64,000 nt of DNA, taken from positions 1 to 64,000 of IMG/VR virus record IMGVR_UViG_3300029915_000731. One strand, 5' to 3'. The first letter of the stretch is position 1. Each line of letters opens with the position of its first letter. Both the position numbers and the translations under genes were made by a program. Under the pieces are notes generated by a model. That model did not search any database. It saw only the letters and a program-made list of their open reading frames with translations, and was not told the origin of the DNA. The stretch comes from a virus. Of the stretch, positions 4,827 to 34,071 are shown in pieces.

Positions 4827-4860
4827 ACAATACAAAAGCCGCTCGGTTGAGAGCGGCTTC
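4827..4860 (-). terminator. Attenuator terminator of tRNA operon 1
   Basis: AAGCCGCTC-TCAACC-GAGCGGCTT-TTGTATTGT immediately before the first tRNA. Confidence 0.85.
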
Positions 4861-4883
4861 GTTTGAACTCTGGTTTGACTTGA

Positions 4884-4976
4884 CTATTTGTCAGTCCACC
4901 CGTTCAACACGGAGCCGTCGCTAAGCAGGTAATACAAGCTTAGTGATAAAACCGAGTTGTTAACGAGGTTGGTCAT
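4884..4976 (-). CDS. Leu/Tyr leader peptide MTNLVNNSVLSLSLYYLLSDGSVLNGWTDK
   Basis: AAGGG SD; contains all six Leu and both Tyr codons; 3' part overlaps the antiterminator. Confidence 0.85.
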   Translation of the reverse strand: MTNLVNNSVLSLSLYYLLSDGSVLNGWTDK

Positions 4977-4999
4977 TGTCATCCCTTTCGCTGTGATAA

Positions 5000-5032
5000 G
5001 CGTCTAGGGGTCGCTTAGCGTCCCCTAGACGC
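5000..5032 (-). promoter_or_regulatory. Strong 5'-UTR hairpin upstream of leader peptide 1
   Basis: 11-bp perfect stem GCGTCTAGGGG/CCCCTAGACGC. Confidence 0.6.
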
Positions 5033-5071
5033 AATACTCTATATACTCTATATCGGTACCACTTCATATAT

Positions 5072-5101
5072 ATAATACGCAGGAAACCGGAAAACTGTCA
5101 A
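5072..5101 (-). promoter_or_regulatory. sigma70-type promoter of tRNA operon 1
   Basis: TTGACA-N18-TATTAT. Confidence 0.8.
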
Positions 5102-8707: not shown

Positions 8708-8784
8708 TATAATCCCCTTTTGTACTCACGGTGCATAAGCTACTTGCACGATTGGTGCAAGGATACCTTCCACTTAATACTGAC

Positions 8785-11826: not shown

Positions 11827-12321
11827 TTATTCCTTCGCAAAGCCGTTGGTGTAGGGAGCCCAAGTCACGCTGTACTCACCATTAGTTGAAGGGATGACAT
11901 ACATCACATCCATCTTCATCGTTGCCGCAATCTCCAACTCCGCAGTAACCCCCTTTGATTCCTCCCAGCCCGGAAGGCAGAGCACCCAAATAGCATCGCA
12001 GCGAGAGAGCATGGTCTCATCGAACTGCTTCCAGAACGCCCAGTCACCCTGCAACTTACAGTAAGTTGCAATCGGATGGGTGTGACAGATGGGGGAGTAA
12101 AAGAATAAGTCCGTGAACTTGTTCATCAGGTAGCCCGTGGCCACCGCTGCCGACAAGAACCTTACCTCCTGCTGAACTTTGTCCGGGCTGGAGTACGGGC
12201 TTGCGACGTAGACTAGCTTACCTCTTTCCATTTTGCCTCCATCCTTGTAATACTGGAGACAAAAGAAAAGAGCCCAATTACGGGCTCTTTTGGTTATCTC
12301 ATCTTTTGGAGCCACCACCAT
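11827..12321 (-). CDS. DUF1937 / nucleoside deoxyribosyltransferase-like protein (true start may be MERGK)
   Basis: YVASPYS, SPICHTH, LSRCD, GWEESKGVTAE. Confidence 0.75.
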   Translation of the reverse strand: MVVAPKDEITKRARNWALFFCLQYYKDGGKMERGKLVYVASPYSSPDKVQQEVRFLSAAVATGYLMNKFTDLFFYSPICHTHPIATYCKLQGDWAFWKQFDETMLSRCDAIWVLCLPGWEESKGVTAELEIAATMKMDVMYVIPSTNGEYSVTWAPYTNGFAKE

Positions 12322-23628: not shown

Positions 23629-25439
23629 TTCGGGAACATCTTCTCGTTGCGCGTAACAAACTGAATGAAGTCTTCATCCAGAATGTAGTGTTTTGCTTTA
23701 TCCTCTTTGTGACGGTTGGAGCGGCCTGTAGCCTGTACCATGACCAATGCAGTCAGCCAAGCGTAGTATTCTGGGTCACGCTGTTTACGTACCGTCATAT
23801 AGTTGTCGAGGAATGGAAATGGCACCTTGGTGATGATACTGAAACGGCTCAGGTCGTCCTTCAGGTCGAGCCCCTCAGTCATCGACGGAGAGAACAGAAC
23901 GGTGGGCTCACCCTCACGGGCGATGTGCTCAGCTACGACGCGGTCACGGTCACCGGAGATGCCAGTGTGAGTTAGTACGCGACTGCTCATTCCAAGAGAA
24001 CGAAGGTGGTTGACGATGTATTTCGTGTTCTCGTAGCTGTGGGTGTGAACTAGGCCCTTCACGTCTGGGTTCTTCTCGCCCACAATCTTGGCAACCATCT
24101 CAGCCATAAGTGGTAGGGTGGCCTTCTTATTGTTGAAGGACATCTTGCCAACAGGCTTCACGAAGATGCGGCGGTTCTCAATCGGGAACTCGCTATCTAC
24201 CGCTACGGTGACGGCGTCGTTTGGGTCAATCCCGAGGTTACGCATGAAAGTCGTGAAGTTTAAAATGGTCGCAGACAGGATGAGAATCTTCTCCGCCTTC
24301 GAGAACAGAATATCGTCAGCGAAGAGAGTGGCCGTCAACGGCTTCACAACCATCTTGGCCGGGGTGCGGGGGATTTCCACGCCGCAGTCGCGCTTCCAGC
24401 AAGCTTTGGTACCCGGAAGGAGCTTTGCTCCGCAGCGGGGGCACTCGTGAACGTCCGACTCCGAGTAGACAATCCAGTCACGGTGGTCAGGGGCGCAGGT
24501 GAACATTGCCAGCTTCTCACAGAATTGATTCAAACCTGAAAGCTTCTTCGCCAGCTTGGCCATTTCCGGGGTCATCTGGCCAGTAGCCTTCGCGGTGGCC
24601 AGATCATCTTCCCAACGGTTCACGGTAGCCGTAGCTGCCGGAAGGAACACTTCGGTAATCCACTTAAGGCCGGAGGCACAGTCGCCAGCGTCGATGAAGG
24701 GAACTGAGCTGTAGGTGATGCCGACTTCTTCGACGCGGAAGCGGTTGAGTTCGACGCTGGCCATCGAGAGCACCTGATTCTCGGTGTTGTGGCCTTCGTC
24801 AAGAATCAACATGTGGCGGTTCTTGAACTGGTTGCCGTGGGCGGTCTCGGTCAGGTACTTGGCGAAGTTGGTCACACCCAACGGGGAGTTCAGGAAGGCT
24901 TCCTTAGCGGGTTTGTAGCCCGAGCAATCACCCCCAGAGCCGTCGTGGGTTTCGTGATACATCATGGAGGCGGTTTCGCAATCCATACCCTCACCGTTAT
25001 CGTAGGTGTAGTGACAGAAGTAGTTCGCCTTGCCCTTGAGTTCTTTCAAACCCATGGCAGCAAAGTCACGCATGTACTGGTGAGTTAGAACCTTCTGGGG
25101 TGAAAGAATGTAGGCACCGGGGGCGTAGTTGTCAACGTTAACATTGGGGAACTCAGAGGTGATTCCGACCCGCTTCACGGGATCAGCAAGAGCAGCAAAG
25201 TTGTTCCGGGCTCCCATCACCTTGGCGTAAGACGCGGCAGCGATAGCGATACCAGACTTACCGATGCCCGTGGGAGCCTCGATGATAATGAACTTTTTGT
25301 TGGTGGCGTAAGCTTGCTCAATGGCCTGAAGACAAATCTCCTGCTTCTCGCGGATGGTGGGGAACGGGAAGTGTTCGCGAATGTTCAGCGAATAGTTCTC
25401 ATTCATGTTCTTCACGTCGCTCATTGAAGCAGTCGTCAT
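23583..25439 (-). CDS. DinG/YoaA-like SF2 helicase
   Basis: APTGIGKS, DEGH, SAT, EGLD, QATGRSNR; CPRC..C...C insert. Confidence 0.9.
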   Translation of the reverse strand: MTTASMSDVKNMNENYSLNIREHFPFPTIREKQEICLQAIEQAYATNKKFIIIEAPTGIGKSGIAIAAASYAKVMGARNNFAALADPVKRVGITSEFPNVNVDNYAPGAYILSPQKVLTHQYMRDFAAMGLKELKGKANYFCHYTYDNGEGMDCETASMMYHETHDGSGGDCSGYKPAKEAFLNSPLGVTNFAKYLTETAHGNQFKNRHMLILDEGHNTENQVLSMASVELNRFRVEEVGITYSSVPFIDAGDCASGLKWITEVFLPAATATVNRWEDDLATAKATGQMTPEMAKLAKKLSGLNQFCEKLAMFTCAPDHRDWIVYSESDVHECPRCGAKLLPGTKACWKRDCGVEIPRTPAKMVVKPLTATLFADDILFSKAEKILILSATILNFTTFMRNLGIDPNDAVTVAVDSEFPIENRRIFVKPVGKMSFNNKKATLPLMAEMVAKIVGEKNPDVKGLVHTHSYENTKYIVNHLRSLGMSSRVLTHTGISGDRDRVVAEHIAREGEPTVLFSPSMTEGLDLKDDLSRFSIITKVPFPFLDNYMTVRKQRDPEYYAWLTALVMVQATGRSNRHKEDKAKHYILDEDFIQFVTRNEKMFPKWWLDSLVFLPMMAA

Positions 25440-27567: not shown

Positions 27568-27911
27568 TAGACTATCGACGGGAGTTTAAAGAAACTTACC
27601 GACTGAGATAGTTTCATTGCGTCGGATAGTGCTACTTTAACCGCCCCCTCCACTTGAGTGACTCTTTCCACACTGGCGTCCAATTTTTTGATTCCCGGAA
27701 GAACGCTACCCCTCATCCAATCTGCTGCACAGTTAAACTCCTCCGCCCTAGATGATAGGTCTTCTTGGTTTAGAAGAGTCAACACCTGATTTAGACACAA
27801 CCCTAAATCACTCAACGACTGTCTGACCCCTGCGTCAGTAGCAACCCAGAAGGCCGCTGCTACACTGTTCTGTGCTGTCGCAACAAGAATCCTAACTTCA
27901 CTTTGCTCCAT
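27567..27911 (-). CDS. Hypothetical protein
   Basis: 114 aa, AGGAG SD. Confidence 0.6.
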   Translation of the reverse strand: MEQSEVRILVATAQNSVAAAFWVATDAGVRQSLSDLGLCLNQVLTLLNQEDLSSRAEEFNCAADWMRGSVLPGIKKLDASVERVTQVEGAVKVALSDAMKLSQSVSFFKLPSIV

Positions 27912-28866
27912 GTCGCTCTCCTGTAACTAACTGGTGATGGGTCTCAGCCAGTCTCTTGACTGCATCACTTGCGTTGGTTAAATCACTATCAGCCTTGGCC
28001 GCGTCTCGTTCAATCTGATAGAGCTTCTTGGTCTCTGCGCGTAGCTCCAATGGGGAAAACTTATACATATTCCTCTGGATGAACTCGCTCTGCCCCATCA
28101 GTAGCACCAAGTAGTCACTCTTGGCCTGACTTCTCAGGGTCACGAGGTCTTCAGACAACAGGACACAGAGCTGTTGGATAGTGGGGTCTGCCGCCTTCAT
28201 CAGAGGGCGAAGCCGCTTCTTCACCATGTGGTGGATGAAGGGTTTTATTGCCGCATCCATACCGGAGATGACCATATTCATCTGCTGCTGGGTCATGAGG
28301 GTATTTCGGCTACTGGTGAGTGTGCTGGTAACACTGCCTGTCTTGGTGGAACTCCCAGCATTAGTAGTGGTGTCGGTAAGAGTCGTGTTCACTTTCACCG
28401 CGTTAGAGGTTGTGTTGGTGGCGGTTGTGGTGTTGGTGGTTGTATTTGTGGATGCCGTGGTAGCCATGGCCGTTCGGACACCTGCCGCTGTGGTAGAAGT
28501 CAGCGACTTTGTTTTCGCCGCAAGCTCCTGCTCCCGCTTTCCGAGAGCCAAGTCGCTCACCATAATAGCATAATCGCGAAGGACTGAGATGGCGGCTTCT
28601 CGGGCTCGAAGGTCATCCTGCTTAATGAAGTCAGTCAACTGACCGGGGCGGTATCCGGTTGAAGAGTAGTGGTCGATGAGGGTCGATTCCTCCTCTAGTG
28701 TATGGATGGTGCTCACACCGAGGTACGCCGAGTCTACCTGTGCTAAAGCGGCAGGAGCCGGAAGAGAGAAGGCCCCCACACCCCTAGCCCAACGACTATA
28801 GCCGCAGCCACTAGTGACAACGAGGAGAGTAAGTAAGGTAAGAGATTGTACTTGTCGAGAGTTCAT
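27898..28866 (-). CDS. Putative lipoprotein with Thr-rich insert
   Basis: Signal peptide with lipobox TSGC. Confidence 0.7.
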   Translation of the reverse strand: MNSRQVQSLTLLTLLVVTSGCGYSRWARGVGAFSLPAPAALAQVDSAYLGVSTIHTLEEESTLIDHYSSTGYRPGQLTDFIKQDDLRAREAAISVLRDYAIMVSDLALGKREQELAAKTKSLTSTTAAGVRTAMATTASTNTTTNTTTATNTTSNAVKVNTTLTDTTTNAGSSTKTGSVTSTLTSSRNTLMTQQQMNMVISGMDAAIKPFIHHMVKKRLRPLMKAADPTIQQLCVLLSEDLVTLRSQAKSDYLVLLMGQSEFIQRNMYKFSPLELRAETKKLYQIERDAAKADSDLTNASDAVKRLAETHHQLVTGERHGAK

Positions 28867-28885
28867 GTAGCTTAATACTGAAAAT

Positions 28886-28960
28886 TGGAGCGGGAGACGG
28901 GAATCGAACCCGCGACATTCAGCTTGGGAAGCTGACGTTCTACCACTGAACTACTCCCGC
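28886..28960 (-). tRNA. trnG: tRNA-Gly(CCC)
   Basis: TCAGC-TTCCCAA-GCTGA, U73-CCA. Confidence 0.97.
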
Positions 28961-28997
28961 TCACTTCGTATGAATCTCTCTTCGACCGTACAAACTT

Positions 28998-29162
28998 TTA
29001 TTTTACAATAGAGATGATGTCACGGCCTTCTTCACCGACCACGTAGGCTGTGATCGAAGATTGATCGAACTTCCGATAGCAGCGCGGGGTGTCCCCGTCG
29101 ATGTGAATGCGGACAGTAGACGCCTGTGACATCAGGAATCCCACGTTCTCCTTCTGCATCAT
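28998..29162 (-). CDS. Small hypothetical protein (54 aa)
   Basis: MMQKENVGFLMSQ...IISIVK; follows tandem GTATTAG motifs. Confidence 0.45.
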   Translation of the reverse strand: MMQKENVGFLMSQASTVRIHIDGDTPRCYRKFDQSSITAYVVGEEGRDIISIVK

Positions 29163-29198
29163 CTCTAATACTGCTAATACTGCTGTTCTACTATTTAC

Positions 29199-29274
29199 TG
29201 GTAGGGTTAGTGGGGTTCGAACCCACGTTGGAAGATTGAAAGTCTTCTATCCTGACCGATTAGATGATAACCCC
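29199..29274 (-). tRNA. trnE: tRNA-Glu(TTC)
   Basis: GAAGA-CTTTCAA-TCTTC, CCA. Confidence 0.92.
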
Positions 29275-29280
29275 AAAAAA

Positions 29281-29358
29281 TGGTAGGGCCAGTGAGATTC
29301 GAACTCACGATTTCCTCCTTGAGAGGGAGGCGGCTTAAGCCAACTGGCCTATGACCCC
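29281..29358 (-). tRNA. trnE: tRNA-Glu(CTC)
   Basis: CCTCC-CTCTCAA-GGAGG, CCA. Confidence 0.92.
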
Positions 29359-29375
29359 ACATTACATCTAAAATT

Positions 29376-29443
29376 TGGTAGCGGTTTCCGACGCCCGCAC
29401 GGTTCCTCCCAGCAGCTACGGGGAGCCCGTTGTTACACCGCTA
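29376..29443 (-). ncRNA. Degenerate tRNA-like element ending in ACCA
   Basis: AGCGGT/ACCGCT-ACCA with one long internal hairpin. Confidence 0.4.
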
Positions 29444-29472
29444 GCTGTTCTCTAGTTCCAAGCGGGAGTCAT

Positions 29473-29579
29473 TTTCAATCAGACCCCGAGACTTTCCGGG
29501 GATGTAACGCCTGTGCGTAATCTCACTGTCCCCGATAGTTTCTTTCAATCGGACCCCCGATACCTTCCGGGGATGTAAC
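29473..29579 (-). CRISPR. Two-repeat mini CRISPR array
   Basis: Repeats 29473-29508 and 29543-29579 (GTTACATCCCCGGAARGTMTCGGGGTCYGATTGAAA), 34-nt spacer. Confidence 0.75.
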
Positions 29580-29594
29580 GCCTGTGCGTAATCT

Positions 29595-29670
29595 TGGTAC
29601 TCTCGGTTGGATTCGAACCGACGATTTCCTCCGTGTCGAGGAGGCGATTTAGCCACTAATCTACGAGAGC
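29595..29670 (-). tRNA. trnV: tRNA-Val(GAC), atypical C33
   Basis: CCTCC-TCGACAC-GGAGG, CCA. Confidence 0.88.
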
Positions 29671-29676
29671 AAAACT

Positions 29677-30351
29677 TTAGTACAGTAAGTCTAGTTCACC
29701 CTTCAATATTCTCTCTGGGTACTGAACCATCTTACCATTGCGATGGTCTTTTGCGAAGCCCTTAATGAAGTTGTAGGTGCGAATCTTATCGCCCCGGCCA
29801 CCTCCACCTAACTGACTCTGCCGCTCAATACCGTAAGTGGTCTCTGCTTCCTTATCCTTCGCCAGCTTCACTTTCTGAGCTAGGATGGCAAGTGCGTCTT
29901 CCTTGTTACGGTGTTGGTCTCGACCATTGATAAAGACCGACAATCCAGTGGGCTTGTGTACGGCTCTCACCGCACTGTCGGTGGTGTTCTGATGCTGCCC
30001 ACCTTTACCGTGCCCCCGCTGAGTCTTGACTTCAATCTCAGAATCGGGAAGTTTGTCCTGATACTTCTCAGGAGGTAATGGCAATACAGCTACCGAGACC
30101 ACTGATGTGTGCCGCCGTCCAGCCCTGTCATTATCAGGGCACCGCTGGACAACGTGCTTTCCAGCTTCCCGGCGAAATAGTTCCCATACGTCTTGCCCAG
30201 AGAACTTCATTACTGCGTGTCCAAAACTACTGGTGAGTATCTCGGTCTTGAGTTTCTTGCGGAGCCCATACTGTGCGTAAGCACTGAGCATGTCGTCCAC
30301 GAAACCCTTCGAGTCATCCCCACCTTCACCGAAGTGAATTTCGAGAATCAA
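29677..30351 (-). CDS. Class-1 peptide chain release factor homolog lacking domain 1; true start likely 30417/30421 via stop bypass
   Basis: ILEIHFGEGG, EAGKHVVQRCP, GRRHTS, GKGGQHQNTTDSAVR, KIRTYNF. Confidence 0.9.
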   Translation of the reverse strand: MILEIHFGEGGDDSKGFVDDMLSAYAQYGLRKKLKTEILTSSFGHAVMKFSGQDVWELFRREAGKHVVQRCPDNDRAGRRHTSVVSVAVLPLPPEKYQDKLPDSEIEVKTQRGHGKGGQHQNTTDSAVRAVHKPTGLSVFINGRDQHRNKEDALAILAQKVKLAKDKEAETTYGIERQSQLGGGGRGDKIRTYNFIKGFAKDHRNGKMVQYPERILKGELDLLY

Positions 30352-30469
30352 ATCTGAGGATGGTCTAAAGACAGTTCCCTCGGACTGTATTCACCGCGTT
30401 GCTTTTCTGTTTTTCATACATAGCATCCTCCTCAGGATTGAATTAAATCTTCTTCCTTCCAGCCTCTTA

Positions 30470-30634
30470 TCACCTCGACTGCTGTCGCTCGTGGCTCAGG
30501 TAAGAATAACTTGCCATGAGAAAACCAATTGGATCATCTCCAGCACCAACATCACCATCAAACAGTTCTACCAAGAACTTCGCTACTCTCGCTTCGTCAG
30601 GCGAGTATGGATTGGTCTCCATGTTACGTGTCAT
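30470..30634 (-). CDS. Small hypothetical protein (54 aa)
   Basis: AAGGTGAG SD; MTRNMETNPYSPDEARVAKFL...GAGDDPIGFL. Confidence 0.55.
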   Translation of the reverse strand: MTRNMETNPYSPDEARVAKFLVELFDGDVGAGDDPIGFLMASYSYLSHERQQSR

Positions 30635-30668
30635 TTCTCACCTTAGAACAGTAAATCTACTCCAAAAC

Positions 30669-30744
30669 TGGTGGAGCTGGAGAGGCTTGAACTCTCGACC
30701 TTTTCCATGCCATGGAAACGCGCTCCCAACTGCGCCACAGCCCC
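30669..30744 (-). tRNA. trnA: tRNA-Ala(GGC)
   Basis: TTTCC-ATGGCAT-GGAAA; G3:U70. Confidence 0.96.
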
Positions 30745-30751
30745 ACAACTT

Positions 30752-30855
30752 CGTGTGATGCAGTGCCGGAATCGAACCGACCTTGTGGCCGACAGAATCA
30801 TCCAAGCCATCTTATGGATTCAAGAGAACCCAGTTCTCTTCATCCTGCACACACG
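30752..30855 (-). ncRNA. tRNA-like RNA with canonical T arm but closed termini
   Basis: GTCGG-TTCGATT-CCGGC; 8-bp AAGAGAAC/GTTCTCTT arm; no CCA. Confidence 0.55.
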
Positions 30856-30863
30856 CTAAAAAT

Positions 30864-30942
30864 TGGCGGTTCCAGCGGGATTTGAACCCGCGATCTTCAC
30901 CTTGACAGGGTGACGGGGACGGCCAGACTCCCCTATGAAACC
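30864..30942 (-). tRNA. trnD: tRNA-Asp(GTC)
   Basis: TCACC-CTGTCAA-GGTGA; G73-CCA. Confidence 0.95.
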
Positions 30943-30950
30943 AAAACTTT

Positions 30951-31026
30951 TGGTGGAGCTAGTCGGGATCGAACCGACGACCTCATCGTTGCGAACGATG
31001 CGCTCTCCCAACTGAGCTATAGCCCC
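30951..31026 (-). tRNA. trnA: tRNA-Ala(CGC)
   Basis: CATCG-TTCGCAA-CGATG; G3:U70. Confidence 0.97.
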
Positions 31027-31042
31027 ATCCCCCTTTATGCGC

Positions 31043-31223
31043 GACCGTAAGGGCTCGTGACAGAGTTGACCTAGCGGCGGGGGTACCGTTTCATGCCTCT
31101 CCCAGTGTCACCCAAGAGACTACAAGCGGCGGAGGTACGGTAGCATGTCAAAACCAGAGAGCGAGTCTTTCTCCATCTGTTATGTGTTTACTACTCTCGC
31201 CCTACCGTCACAACCCATTGGTC
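31043..31223 (-). ncRNA. Unassigned multi-stem structured RNA
   Basis: Nested pairings GACC/GGTC, GGGTTGTGAC/GTCACGAGCCC, GGTAG/CTACC, GCGAG/CTCGC, GTACC/GGTAC. Confidence 0.5.
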
Positions 31224-31254
31224 AGTTTCTACTCACTGGGTCGGACTTAAACTT

Positions 31255-31291
31255 TTTCAATTGAACCCCGAGACCTTCCGGGGATAACAAC
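31255..31291 (-). CRISPR. Solitary CRISPR-like repeat, variant 2
   Basis: GTTGTTATCCCCGGAAGGTCTCGGGGTTCAATTGAAA. Confidence 0.65.
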
Positions 31292-31299
31292 CACTTATA

Positions 31300-31380
31300 T
31301 AAGATGTGAGGATGAGCTTCTCGTCTCACCCATAGCGGGTTCTTATGTTGCCGCCGTCCTGATTGAACGATCACACCTTA
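31300..31380 (-). ncRNA. Cloverleaf-like RNA without anticodon loop or CCA
   Basis: TAAGGTGTGA/TCACATCTTA terminal stem enclosing three arms. Confidence 0.45.
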
Positions 31381-31384
31381 AACT

Positions 31385-31461
31385 TGGAGCACTAGGAGGA
31401 ACTCGAATCCTCGCATTAACGGTTTTGCAGACCGTCGCCTTACCATCTTGGCCACTAGTGC
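31385..31461 (-). tRNA. trnC: tRNA-Cys(GCA)
   Basis: ACGGT-CTGCAAA-ACCGT; U73-CCA. Confidence 0.92.
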
Positions 31462-31466
31462 TAAAC

Positions 31467-31545
<79 letters not shown>

Positions 31546-31603
31546 TGAGGGGGTAAATTTATAAAGCGGAAAGTCTACGTCAGACCCCCATCCGCTGAAT
31601 TAC

Positions 31604-31988
31604 TGTGCCAAACCGATAAGCGGAGTTCTGTTCCCCTCGCGGGGTGACAATCATTCGTCTACGAATACTGTTACCAGTACCCTCTAGCCCTCAACCCGCC
31701 GATTCATAACGGTACGAGCAGTACCTGTCGGCCTATTTGAAGTTGCATCGCGTAGAGATTGCCCGTTTCACCCGGCGTCCGGTTTCCCGGCTGACCGACT
31801 CGTCTCTGTTGCTCTAATCGTCGCAAGGGGGATTGGTTGGGAATTTACGGCTGTTACACCGCTGTCACGTTCGACATGAGAAACGCTTCCAACCACACCT
31901 TACGCTAGGCCGTTAGCCTATACGCTGCTCTTTGATGCTCCGACTTTCCTCCCCCACTTGCGTGGCGGCGATTGTCTGGTTTGGCACA
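31604..31988 (-). ncRNA. rnpB: RNase P RNA (bacterial type A)
   Basis: P1 TGTGCCAAACC/GGTTTGGCACA; GAGGAAAGTCGGAGC pairing with ACAGAACTCCGCTTA (P4); GGGCAATCTCTAC, TGCAAC, GGTAAC. Confidence 0.95.
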
Positions 31989-32019
31989 ATTCTGTATTGA
32001 AGCCGGGTCGGGACTTACA

Positions 32020-32361
32020 TCAATCCACCTTGATGCGTTCTACTGCCACGCAGCGGAGGTGGTCTCGCACCTCTTGAGAGAACTCGTTGAACATCGTGCC
32101 CTTATCCAACCAGTGCAAGATGGCCGCCCAAGTCTCCTCTTCAGGGGTCCACTGCCCTTCAAGACCGTAACACGAGCAGTGTGAACCGTGAACTGAAAAC
32201 AGCTTACCATCCTTCTCGAATAGGACAAAAGCCGAACCCTCGTAACACTCGTAGCGATACACAGCCGCGTAGATTACAGCGTCCTTCAATTCGTCCTCGC
32301 CGATTTGGAACTCCCGGCGGATGTCTTCAGCTTCATTGAACTGCTCCTCGAATACATTCAT
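32020..32361 (-). CDS. Conserved phage hypothetical protein (start revised to MNVFEE)
   Basis: AGGAG SD; YEGSAFVLF..DGKLF.VHGSHCSCYGLEGQW. Confidence 0.75.
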   Translation of the reverse strand: MNVFEEQFNEAEDIRREFQIGEDELKDAVIYAAVYRYECYEGSAFVLFEKDGKLFSVHGSHCSCYGLEGQWTPEEETWAAILHWLDKGTMFNEFSQEVRDHLRCVAVERIKVD

Positions 32362-32447
32362 TGTGTTTTCTCCTTGTGAAATCACATTCACGGGTGGAGT
32401 CGCGCAATGAAGTTCGATATGACAGCCCAACCCGACTTCAAAACTTT

Positions 32448-32526
32448 TGGTGGACCTCCAGAGATTCGAACTCTGCTGATATTTTCGGTGCAAGCGAAAT
32501 AAACACTCCTAGCATTTCCGAGGCCC
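32448..32526 (-). tRNA. trnA: tRNA-Ala(TGC), divergent D arm
   Basis: TTTCG-CTTGCAC-CGAAA; G3:U70; ACCA. Confidence 0.85.
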
Positions 32527-32568
32527 ACATTAAACTTAAATTTTCAAAGACCGTCAAGCTCTAAACTT

Positions 32569-32605
32569 TTTCAATTGAACCCCGAGACCTTCCGGGGATA
32601 ACAAC
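32569..32605 (-). CRISPR. Solitary CRISPR-like repeat, variant 2
   Basis: Identical to 31255-31291 including short flanks. Confidence 0.65.
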
Positions 32606-32711
32606 CACTTATAAGCTTGATTCGTCGGGTGTCAAGCTTATTAGCTTGTCCCGGTGTCAACCTAATACTGTTGACATTACCTTTGTCAACGTTACTCTGT
32701 TGACGAAACTC

Positions 32712-32786
32712 TGGAGCGGGAGACGGGAATCGAACCCGCGACCAACAGCTTGGAAGGCTGAGACTCTACCACTGAGTTACTCCCGC
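32712..32786 (-). tRNA. trnG: tRNA-Gly(TCC)
   Basis: CAGC-CTTCCAA-GCTG. Confidence 0.97.
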
Positions 32787-32810
32787 ATCTACCCCCTTCA
32801 TAAAATCTCT

Positions 32811-32903
32811 GAGGAGCCTACAGGACACTACCTGTAGTCATTGGCGGTAATCGGGTCTCCCCTTCCCGCTAGGTAAGCCGAACTTACGTTTCGGCCACTC
32901 CTC
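32811..32903 (-). ncRNA. Unassigned four-way-junction RNA
   Basis: GAGGAG/CTCCTC; GCCGAA/TTCGGC; GCGG..GGG-GAGA-CCC..CCGC; CTACAGG/CCTGTAG. Confidence 0.55.
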
Positions 32904-32909
32904 AAACTT

Positions 32910-32984
32910 TGGTACTCGATAAAGGATTCGAACCTTCGACTTCCCACTTGTAAGGAGGGCACTCTACCGCTGAGTTAATCGAGC
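32910..32984 (-). tRNA. trnV: tRNA-Val(TAC)
   Basis: CCCTC-CTTACAA-GTGGG; CCA. Confidence 0.93.
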
Positions 32985-33012
32985 AAAAGTAAAGCCACCT
33001 TAAGGGTGGCCT
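32985..33012 (-). terminator. Attenuator terminator of tRNA operon 2
   Basis: AGGCCACC-CTTAA-GGTGGCTT-TACTTTT directly before tRNA-Val. Confidence 0.8.
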
Positions 33013-33035
33013 CGTTAGGTTCGGATTGATTCTGC

Positions 33036-33152
33036 TTATCCGATTCCTCCCGAGGACATGGTACCCTCATCTCCGCCTTCGCAATCAGCGGCCACGCCCG
33101 CGGCGACTGCTGCGGCGCTGACGGCTACGATGCTGGCGATGGTGTTGGTCAT
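33036..33152 (-). CDS. Val/Ala/Gly/Asp/Cys/Glu leader peptide MTNTIASIVAVSAAAVAAGVAADCEGGDEGTMSSGGIG
   Basis: GAGGA SD; lies between promoter and terminator; codons match downstream tRNAs. Confidence 0.85.
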   Translation of the reverse strand: MTNTIASIVAVSAAAVAAGVAADCEGGDEGTMSSGGIG

Positions 33153-33170
33153 GTTCTTCCTCACACTTTT

Positions 33171-33200
33171 ATAATACCCAGTATTTCTGGTTTTTGTCAA
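33171..33200 (-). promoter_or_regulatory. sigma70-type promoter of tRNA operon 2
   Basis: TTGACA-N18-TATTAT. Confidence 0.8.
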
Positions 33201-33243
33201 TTCATTTCTGAATTTATTTTTAAACCCCATCATCTTTTCAATT

Positions 33244-33434
33244 TTTCAATCAGACCCCGAGACTTTCCGGGGATGTAACTAAATCTTGGGGTCGGGTAGA
33301 CCGTTGGTTTCAATTTTCAATGTTTCAATCGAACCCCGAGACTTCCCGGGGATGTAACGTGTTTTTGGGCGACCACGATACGCAGGCCCCTTTCAATCTT
33401 TCAATCGGACCCCGATACCTTCCGGGGATGTAAC
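33244..33434 (-). CRISPR. Three-repeat mini CRISPR array
   Basis: 36-nt repeats at 33244-33279, 33323-33358, 33399-33434; 43- and 40-nt spacers. Confidence 0.8.
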
Positions 33435-33441
33435 CTGTAGC

Positions 33442-34071
33442 CTACACAATACCCAGTTCAGCGGGAGATGTCAACTCAGTTCTGAACGTTGCTTTCAATT
33501 GAGAAACCCCACGATAAATGTCGGATTTGACGGCTGTGAGACTCTTGCCCATCATCTCCGCCAGTTCTTTTCCTGTATACCCCTCAATCTGGCTCAGAGC
33601 CACCACCGTGCGATACTTGGGTGGCAGCTTGAGCAGGGCACGGTGGATATCCTCGCGTGCCGGGAAGGACTCTTGCTGTCGGTCTGGGACGCTAAGCTGA
33701 ATCCTACCCCCGGTGAATGATTCCCTTCCCTCTTCATAAGGAATCTGCTCATCAAGTGAGATGTCGAAGACCCGCTTCCGGTACTTGCGAAGGTGTTGGA
33801 GTCCCTCGTTTACTGCGATGCGGTGAGCCCACGTAACAAAACTGGACTCGAAATTGAATCGCTTCAAGTTTAGGTACACCTTCAGCCACGTGTTGGCCGC
33901 AATGTCACAGGCTAGGTCGGGCTGCTCTACCACTCCCCTAGCTGCCTTGAACACACGGTCATCATAGCGTCGGTAGAGTTTACCGAACGCCTCCTCATCA
34001 CCCTTCTTTGCACGCCGAATGAGACTCAACACTTCCTTGTCGTCAAACATTCGTACCTTCTTCTTAACCAT
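33442..34071 (-). CDS. ECF-type sigma-70 factor
   Basis: GDEEAFGKLY, F.TW.HRIAVN (region 2), LPPKYR...EGYTGKELAEMMG (region 4). Confidence 0.9.
   Translation of the reverse strand: MVKKKVRMFDDKEVLSLIRRAKKGDEEAFGKLYRRYDDRVFKAARGVVEQPDLACDIAANTWLKVYLNLKRFNFESSFVTWAHRIAVNEGLQHLRKYRKRVFDISLDEQIPYEEGRESFTGGRIQLSVPDRQQESFPAREDIHRALLKLPPKYRTVVALSQIEGYTGKELAEMMGKSLTAVKSDIYRGVSQLKATFRTELTSPAELGIV

Follow-up and report, generated by a model that had tools for sequence, protein, structure and literature searches.

A phage tRNA block with RNase P RNA, a release-factor gene and CRISPR-repeat-like units, and its probable layers of control

The tRNA block and its codon-matched leader

The DNA considered here (the window, 64,000 nucleotides) is the first 64 kb of the 100,340-bp IMG/VR record IMGVR_UViG_3300029915_000731, which has a CheckV completeness of 32%. 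The record is a fragment of an uncultured peat jumbo phage with a genome of roughly 300 kb. Between 28873 and 33474 it carries twelve tRNA genes, an RNase P RNA, a release factor with a GGQ motif and CRISPR-repeat-like units. A first-pass annotation of this DNA had listed these parts as co-oriented, and all are confirmed on the minus strand. On balance, the stretch is somewhat better read as the RNA-rich start of a long transcription unit that runs leftward and has three layers of control than as an operon governed by one switch. The direct evidence consists of sequence features, family matches, statistics, parallels in relatives and the presence of RNA in sequenced libraries.

The tRNA genes lie within 28886-32984, are called concordantly by ARAGORN and Rfam, and encode CCA in all twelve cases. 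Read along the minus strand, they are tRNA-Val (UAC) at 32910..32984, tRNA-Gly (UCC) at 32712..32786, tRNA-Ala (UGC) at 32448..32526, tRNA-Gly (GCC) at 31471..31545, tRNA-Cys (GCA) at 31385..31461, tRNA-Ala (CGC) at 30951..31026, tRNA-Asp (GUC) at 30864..30942, tRNA-Ala (GGC) at 30669..30744, tRNA-Val (GAC) at 29595..29670, tRNA-Glu (CUC) at 29281..29358, tRNA-Glu (UUC) at 29199..29274 and tRNA-Gly (CCC) at 28886..28960.

Ahead of the first of these genes is the promoter P33200 (33171..33200, TTGACA-18-TATTAT), which matches the sigma-70 consensus at 11 of 12 positions. It is followed by a GAGGAAG Shine-Dalgarno (SD) sequence and, from the ATG at 33152, by a leader open reading frame (ORF) of 38 codons and a stop (33036..33152, MTN...GIG). 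Twenty-five of its 37 sense codons are readable by the tRNAs of the operon (binomial P 3.6e-5), a number attained by 0 of 5,512 equal-length windows of long ORFs. The leader codons represent 11 of the 12 tRNA species; the sole tRNA without a leader codon is tRNA-Gly (CCC), the last gene. An intrinsic terminator (32991..33013) with a 9-bp stem of -13.1 kcal/mol and a UUUACUUUU tail lies 23 nt past the leader stop and abuts tRNA-Val. Nothing else on the minus strand in 28500-33700 resembles a terminator. Leader codons 28-38 (33038..33070, strand 2) can pair with strand 3 (33000..33025), which includes the entire 5' arm and loop of the terminator. RNAduplex gives this duplex -28.4 kcal/mol, as against the -13.1 of the hairpin, and the antiterminator has a z of -4.2 against shuffled upstream sequence. 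In the fold of the untranslated leader, strand 2 pairs with the SD/AUG region. The block, operon 2 of the window, has the marks of an attenuator: promoter, SD and short ORF, codon enrichment, terminator, and an antiterminator that excludes it.

Parallel leaders are found in other operons, and five were compared on four contigs (operons 1 and 2 of the window, G006, G001 and G003). Each parallel leader matches its own tRNA set and is followed by a terminator-like hairpin and a U run, although the G003 hairpin is weak (-4.1 kcal/mol). For example, the attenuator of operon 1 (4827-5101, minus strand) has a TTGACA-18-TATTAT promoter, a leader of 30 codons at 4976-4884, an antiterminator (4922-4895 with 4874-4848) and a terminator, and then come two tRNA-Tyr and seven tRNA-Leu genes. 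Its leader holds all six of the six Leu codons and both Tyr codons. In G006 (L008:5366-5800) a near-copy of P33200 heads the third leader, 30 codons rich in Thr, Ile and Gln, which with its terminator precedes Ile, Thr and Gln tRNAs. The 5' untranslated region (UTR) of this leader contains one of the repeat units described below. Loose ends of RNA contigs from the window match L008:5577-5671, and G006 may be a close relative or another part of the same phage. The more distant relatives were retrieved via the release factor (47-57% identity). G001 has a Leu/Tyr leader ahead of Leu and Tyr tRNAs, and G003 a Leu/Ser/Cys leader ahead of Leu, Ser and Cys tRNAs.

When every leader is scored on every tRNA set, leaders with distinct sets score highest on their own, and the sets that share Leu cross-match. 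Binomial P values for the five range from 6e-6 to 5.6e-3, and the tRNA species represented number 6/6, 11/12, 5/5, 5/5 and 7/8. Compared with shuffles, the antiterminator of G006 has a z of -3.5 and that of operon 1 a weak -1.8; G003 is also better than its shuffles. No matching leader was found by the leader search for the Lys/Arg tRNA group of G003 or the suppressor tRNA group of G006, so the search does not find one everywhere. The latter group includes, at L008:4827-4901, a tRNA with the anticodon CUA, of the amber suppressor type (labelled Pyl by ARAGORN). In the window phage TAG is an ordinary stop, and the release-factor gene has a UAG shift site. Judged on sequence, the attenuator of operon 2 is well supported by its codon match, its antiterminator and the five parallel cases, the parallels counting for most.

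Ribozyme, release factor, repeats and probable internal starts

The RNase P RNA gene (rnpB, 31601-31987) is of bacterial class A (RF00010), with 182.3 bits against a cut-off of 100 over model positions 1-367. In the model alignment the core is intact, with the P4 strands GAGGAAAGUC and ACAGAA and the GGU that pairs with tRNA CCA. The S-domain is rearranged with respect to the model and has a 75-nt insertion and a 43-nt deletion. Searched as DNA, rnpB gives a single 44-nt core match, in one record, among 50,697 phage records, no match in two Acidobacteriota genomes with similar repeats, and 8 short core matches of about 50 nt in 301 genomes sampled from the phylum of one repeat-bearing genome. 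Going by these features, the ribozyme likely frees the pre-tRNAs, which bear CCA, of attenuator RNA and spacers, presumably together with host RnpA. Shortened RNase P-like RNAs are also detected in two distant relatives, as L134 (G002:114262-114463, 72 bits) and L135 (G005:307076-307376, 57 bits). Because both are below the cut-off and neither is beside tRNAs, they do not establish rnpB within a tRNA operon as a trait of the clade. Directly upstream of rnpB is ORF113 (32020..32361), a DUF7574-like member of phrog_8792. Identity as an RNase P protein was considered and ruled out: the product is acidic, and its family, of unknown function, is widespread in phages.

DNA nearly identical to this recurs in many metagenomes of peat, permafrost and freshwater; six metatranscriptomes contain 42-47% of the words sampled from the stretch. 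Four RNA libraries, from four studies, yield identical contigs at 52-125x that run from 31603, 31657 or 31711 to 32406, 32575, 32739 or 32758. They cover rnpB and ORF113, and three of them also cover tRNA-Ala and a repeat. One contig stops at 31603 with sequencing adapter, beside the predicted 3' end of rnpB. Neither the uncovered stretches nor the ends at 32739 and 32758 are usable as transcript ends, owing to a 31-mer common to the tRNA-Gly genes (32712-32742 and 28886-28916). RNA pieces of the leader and the release factor have depths of 3-9x (3.4x for the leader piece), and with pieces of flanking genes the range is 3-14x. The difference from the 52-125x of rnpB fits an internal promoter or RNA stability alike. 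Depth is one figure per contig and cannot reveal local changes in abundance; the ribozyme RNA is therefore seen to be made and abundant, and its source promoter is not revealed.

The release-factor gene (29677..30421) begins with an SD sequence and the ATG at 30421. Its body ORF (29677-30351) encodes the C-terminal half of a PCRF domain and an RF-1 domain with GGQ, and covers positions 106-333 of the 347 in the RF1 model, which are domains 2-4 without domain 1. NCBIfam scores are 192 bits for RF1 (cut-off 400), 137 for RF2, 70.2 for PrfH (cut-off 166.65) and 26.6 for ArfB (cut-off 100), all under the equivalog cut-offs because domain 1 is missing. The closest solved structures are those of RF1, and GHGKGGQHQN is invariant in the window factor and four aligned relatives. 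Identity as a rescue factor of the ArfB or PrfH kind is ruled out by scores below the cut-offs and by the presence of the codon-reading PCRF domain. The ribosome rescue that the first-pass annotation assigned to this gene is not supported: the factor is RF1-like, and the rescue RNA of the phage is encoded elsewhere. That RNA, a permuted two-piece tmRNA (RF04321, 49.7 bits, cut-off 47), is at genome positions 98481-98703 on the minus strand (L150:15481-15703), 65 kb from the tRNA block.

From the ATG at 30421 a frame of 18 codons ends in CUU UAG (30365-30370), and a +1 slip on CUU_U would enter the factor frame. The site in the window is GAGGG-N6-CUU UAG A. Shift sites of the form CUU-UAG or CUU-UGA lie ahead of five of the six genes compared (window, L002, L004, L005 and, twice, L006). 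The window, L002 and L006 have UAG as the stop at this site; L004 and L005 have UGA despite their PxT factors. In L006, a 527-kb phage, two consecutive AGGGGG-UGY-CUU-UAG sites precede the factor gene (L006:9870-10000); L003 has an in-frame UGA instead of a shift site (L003:9920-10000). The contig of the relative L005 also carries a group II intron domain at L005:5595-5671 (RF00029, 44 bits). The sequence arrangement suggests that a +1 frameshift occurs at CUU UAG and that the product is likely a self-limiting, domain-1-less termination factor of the RF1 type rather than a rescue factor for stalled ribosomes. A factor made only after this shift would respond to the efficiency of UAG termination and not to the leader alone.

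The CRISPR-repeat-like unit is 37 nt long, GTTAC-ATCCCCGG-loop-TCGGGG-N4-ATTGAAA with one final base, and follows the plan of Cas6-processed class 1 repeats. All seven copies are within 29472-33434; there are none in shuffles and none in the rest of the 100 kb. Three (33398-33434, 33322-33358 and 33243-33279) lie upstream of the attenuator, each followed by extra copies of ATTGAAA. Solitary units occur at 32568..32604, in a 52-nt stretch identical to 31248-31299, and at 31254..31290. Two more (29542-29579 and 29472-29508) are 71 nt apart and have the same 13 nt ahead of each. A loosened pattern finds arrays of 9 and 15 repeats in Candidatus Sulfotelmatobacter and an Acidobacteriaceae metagenome-assembled genome (MAG). 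These arrays of peat Acidobacteriota adjoin genes for Cas3, GSU0053 and GSU0054 (type I-U/I-G), and their repeats are identical to the phage unit at 25-28 of 37 bases. A virus-borne mini-CRISPR array is ruled out by the spacers: the two of the upstream trio have no match in IMG/VR, those in G006 are identical copies of each other, and one in L013 is only 11 nt. No Cas6 was found in the 100 kb, 32% of the genome. The end of one RNA contig, at 32575, coincides with the cut expected of a Cas6-type enzyme that leaves the 8-nt handle ATTGAAAA, a weak hint of such processing. Another contig links 29509 with 33322 and has 8 other letters where 3,812 bases are skipped; as both ends are in repeat units, it reflects either an assembly join through the repeats or a variant arrangement. 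RNA anti-CRISPRs are known that consist of solitary repeat units behind promoters (PMC10651486). By analogy, the phage repeats probably mimic type I-G-like repeats and act as RNA anti-CRISPRs, and would do so by binding Cas proteins.

Several starts other than P33200 are predicted in and around the block. P33474 (33446..33474, TTGACA-17-TATTGT) is of the sigma-70 type and lies inside the 3' end of a sigma-factor gene, 11 nt before the first repeat unit, with its predicted start just ahead of that unit. The motif AGTATTA occurs at 32669-32663, before a repeat, tRNA-Ala, ORF113 and rnpB. It is found twice more at 29181-29175 and 29172-29166, 3-4 nt before the ATG ATG start of a 54-codon ORF (ORF54, 28998..29162, no family match) and also ahead of tRNA-Gly (CCC). 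A copy at 28879-28873 precedes by 6 nt the ATG with which the gene next beyond the block begins (27898-28866, minus strand); this leaves no space for an SD sequence and gives a layout of the leaderless type. In the 100-kb record the minus strand has 19 copies and the plus strand 4, where 6.1 per strand are expected (Poisson 2.3e-5). Of the minus-strand copies, 15 are outside long ORFs in a genome that is 86% coding (binomial 4e-10). Eleven copies stand 5-110 nt ahead of ORF starts, several of them at 4-8 nt with no SD space, and two come directly after intrinsic terminators (12254 and 19003). Further minus-strand sites are at 8781, 19748, 20566, 35567 and 37894, and in the peat contig L013 the motif is 6 nt ahead of repeat units. 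AGTATTA probably represents a -10-only promoter class of the phage itself that allows transcription independent of the leader, and several of the sites would imply leaderless mRNAs. The suggestion of the first-pass annotation that internal GTATTA motifs decouple parts of the operon is borne out to the extent that AGTATTA behaves genome-wide as a gene-start signal.

A sigma factor of the ECF type is encoded directly upstream of the block (33442-34071, minus strand, by family match) and perhaps serves the putative AGTATTA promoters. Most of this gene (33807 onward) and its upstream neighbour have no RNA contig in any of the four libraries. The spacer at 32608..32707 is rich in palindromes, with a hairpin of 21-nt arms (32704-32684 and 32676-32656), TTGACA boxes at 32689, 32660 and 32635, and the AGTATTA at 32669-32663. 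Loose matches to TTGACA-N16-TATTAG/TATAAG number 7 in the 100 kb, 5 of them in tRNA operons. The boxes were considered as sigma-70 promoters and downgraded, in view of the nested palindromes (fold z -3.9) and a -10 without the -7 T. They are treated as an operator-like or RNase III-like element, and the spacer is a candidate for an internal promoter/operator or an RNase III-type site.

Three other spacers, at 32787..32909 (z -3.1), 31300..31384 (z -3.5) and 30745..30863 (z -2.35), fold as cloverleaf-shaped four-way junctions with long closing stems. The last has a T-loop-like arm, GGUUCGAUUCC, and a closing stem of about 11 bp. The tRNA-like RNAs reported earlier from this DNA correspond to these folds, which stand as shapes; the tRNA covariance model rejects them. 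The Rfam model (RF00005) gives no additional match at E<=1 in 28600-33600, the three spacers included, and ARAGORN labels 30745..30863 a tRNA only at a threshold lowered to 80%, where its calls are mostly spurious and obvious false calls surround this one. The spacers are tRNA-shaped and are not tRNAs. The block also holds a second 54-codon ORF without a family match (30470..30634). The motif AAGTTT or AGTTT recurs after the CCA of many tRNAs (e.g., 32904-32909 and 32439-32447) and 3' of both identical repeat units (e.g., 32562-32567), and may be a shared signal for 3' processing. There is no terminator at the 28886 end; the minus strand has its next, weak one near 23681 and then a stronger one at 22078-22056. 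With none inside the block, read-through must add to the expression of all that follows, the protein genes beyond 28886 among it.

The phage has the standard genetic code and employs all codon families. Recoding of stop codons is ruled out, since under that code ORFs of at least 100 amino acids cover 86% of the 100-kb record and TAA, TGA and TAG terminate 50, 40 and 36 ORFs. Family matches of the neighbouring genes include none related to tRNA repair or anticodon nucleases adjoining the block.

Proposed layers of control and alternative explanations

In the layered reading, the host-type promoter P33200 would drive the 38-codon leader in an RNA switch of the trp style. A ribosome reaching the leader stop would cover strand 2, and the terminator would form. 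Were it instead to stall at a Val, Ala, Gly, Asp, Cys or Glu codon, up to about codon 24, strand 2 would be free for strand 3; their pairing would sequester the 5' arm of the terminator and let polymerase continue into tRNA-Val and beyond. Slow decoding would then give more tRNA, a feedback on tRNA supply, and the switch probably senses tRNA shortage. Read-through would also supply rnpB, the release factor and the four repeat units downstream. The second layer would consist of AGTATTA at 32669, at 29181/29172 and at 28879, with P33474 ahead of the three upstream repeat units. In the third, a prfB-type +1 frameshift at CUU UAG would gate the release factor.

A number of observations weigh against this reading or parts of it. 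Equilibrium folding with a ribosome mask, of the whole leader or of its downstream part only, favours the terminator at nearly every stall position. As these masked models do not flip, the switch, if real, must be kinetic; the switch of the trp attenuator is kinetic. No ortholog of the operon 2 leader occurs among all the loci fetched, and no convincing antiterminator is found for G001 (z +1.7 against shuffles). No -35 partner of AGTATTA is conserved, and the motif could instead be a site of RNA processing; the -10 hexamers of the TTGACA boxes (TATTAG, TATAAG) differ from the three strong promoters at the -7 T. In the release factor, PDN aligns to the PAT of E. coli RF1, and PPT occupies the PxT position in each of the five relatives read. 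The exact repeat is absent from the 185,579 species genomes searched, and the 100 kb (32% of the genome) yielded no rnpA.

The transcript data bear on a simpler arrangement in which P33200 and the attenuator are the main control of the whole block, so that a lack of tRNAs would induce tRNAs, rnpB, release factor and repeat RNAs jointly, and AGTATTA, the repeats and the hairpin are processing sites of one transcript. RNA contigs of two studies run unbroken from rnpB through ORF113, tRNA-Ala, repeat and spacer, over 32669, into tRNA-Gly, as a single upstream promoter would give, and others span the junctions of release factor with tRNA-Val and of terminator with tRNA-Val. The block has one terminator-like site and just two strong sigma-70-type promoters, both at its head. 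Contig ends at 32575 (a Cas6-type cut site) and at 32406 (3' of tRNA-Ala) would suit processing, and GUAUU agrees with the generally known preference of RNase E, RN|WUU. Against a single switch, AGTATTA copies stand 4-8 nt before starts without SD space, those after the terminators at 12254 and 19003 are where a restart rather than a cut is needed, and a leader piece at 3.4x contrasts with an rnpB piece at 52-125x. The first-pass annotation had likewise placed everything behind one attenuator. The attenuator itself and the lack of an internal terminator stand; the claim as a whole is only partly supported, with three of the seven repeats upstream of the attenuator, probable AGTATTA starts within the operon and a release factor that would require a frameshift. 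A single switch is held to be doubtful.

What the leader senses is a separate matter. One transcript could be made in answer to general translation capacity or amino-acid charging, as a homeostatic early "translation booster" with no link to defence. A stalled ribosome cannot distinguish a missing tRNA from an uncharged one, as is established for the trp and his attenuators, and each of the five leaders spans many amino acids. The standard code, the use of all codon families and the want of repair or nuclease-related genes beside the block also fit a booster. Its output of tRNA, however, cannot cure amino-acid starvation, and the tRNA-by-tRNA match of the leader fits feedback at the level of tRNA better. 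In addition, phage tRNA genes are known to act as counter-defence against tRNA-cleaving defences (PMC10264068, PMC11555353). The booster is regarded as unlikely. Alternatively, a sensor built on ribosome stalling may detect tRNAs that the host has destroyed or withheld and raise tRNAs, ribozyme, termination factor and CRISPR decoys as one infection-stage stress response, which is improbable to a similar degree; that a tRNA-cleaving host defence is the trigger is a guess.

A further explanation is that the leaders are genes for small hydrophobic peptides, or chance frames, that the hairpin is a leaky terminator, and that the tRNAs are made constitutively early. The leader peptide (IASIVAVSAAAVAAGVAA...) does resemble a membrane helix, the terminator is modest with an interrupted U tract, and the thermodynamic models show no switching. 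But five leaders in four contigs vary in composition with the tRNA set behind them, antiterminators are far better than shuffles in three leaders, and the groups left without a leader in G003 and G006 indicate a search that is not indiscriminate. This explanation is very unlikely.

Comparison with known systems

Debate over why phages have tRNA genes goes back decades. If true, a codon-matched leader switch would mean that some phages gauge decoding speed and make tRNAs on demand, and it would make the idea of supply or counter-defence directly testable by reporter. The block also provides an RNase P RNA of full size that is virus-encoded and plentiful in RNA from natural samples, a factor of the RF1 type with a frameshift device hitherto tied to RF2, and candidate RNA anti-CRISPRs against the type I-G systems of peat Acidobacteriota. 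The layered reading shows experimenters which junctions to map first. In the literature, no paper on a virus-encoded RNase P RNA and no published leader-peptide attenuation of tRNA genes was found.

The trpL, hisL, thrL and ilvGMEDA leaders of enterobacteria have the same plan of promoter, SD, codon-rich short ORF, 1:2, 2:3 and 3:4 pairings, and a terminator before the first gene, and the thr and ilv attenuators likewise sense several amino acids together. In contrast to these, the phage version is viral and regulates tRNAs, a ribozyme, a release factor and repeat RNAs rather than biosynthetic enzymes. Its leader has no run of a single codon and instead calls on almost all anticodons of the operon, each once or a few times.

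The nearest published inducible tRNA array is the trn L-array of Anabaena sp. PCC 7120, a silent tRNA operon that is induced under translational stress (PMC8421152) and is under the repressor TrcR (PMC10272220). There too an extra tRNA array is turned on when translation is impaired, and the literature ties it to RNA repair and defence. It differs in being cellular, in its control by a repressor on direct repeats of the promoter, with no attenuation or leader peptide in PMC8421152, and in the absence of rnpB and a release factor.

The T4 tRNA cluster carries two extra stable RNAs. As in the phage block, tRNAs of T4 and of counter-defence clusters are co-transcribed with small stable RNAs, are excised by RNase P and presumably make up for host tRNAs that nucleases have destroyed. 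No codon-matched leader is known to gate those clusters, nor are they known to have their own ribozyme. The ribozyme of the block resembles bacterial class A rnpB in its full-length match, P4 core, GGU and a 3' end that agrees with the RNA data, and differs in being encoded by a phage inside a tRNA operon, with a rearranged S-domain and no rnpA in the 100 kb.

Similarly, the release-factor gene shares with prfB (RF2) a short 5' frame ending in CUU and a stop, an SD-like GAGGG or AGGGGG upstream, and a body in the +1 frame. The phage factor is RF1-like and without domain 1, its shift-site stop is UAG (window, L002 and L006), and L006 has two sites. The repeat units, for their part, resemble Racr and other solitary viral repeat units (PMC10651486): both are look-alikes of repeats that occur singly or in short tandems behind promoters, keep the hairpin and 3' handle, and lie in a cas-less genome. 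In the phage, the copies are set within a tRNA operon, and G006 has one in a leader's 5' UTR; their I-G-like Acidobacteriota type is not among the tested types seen in that paper.

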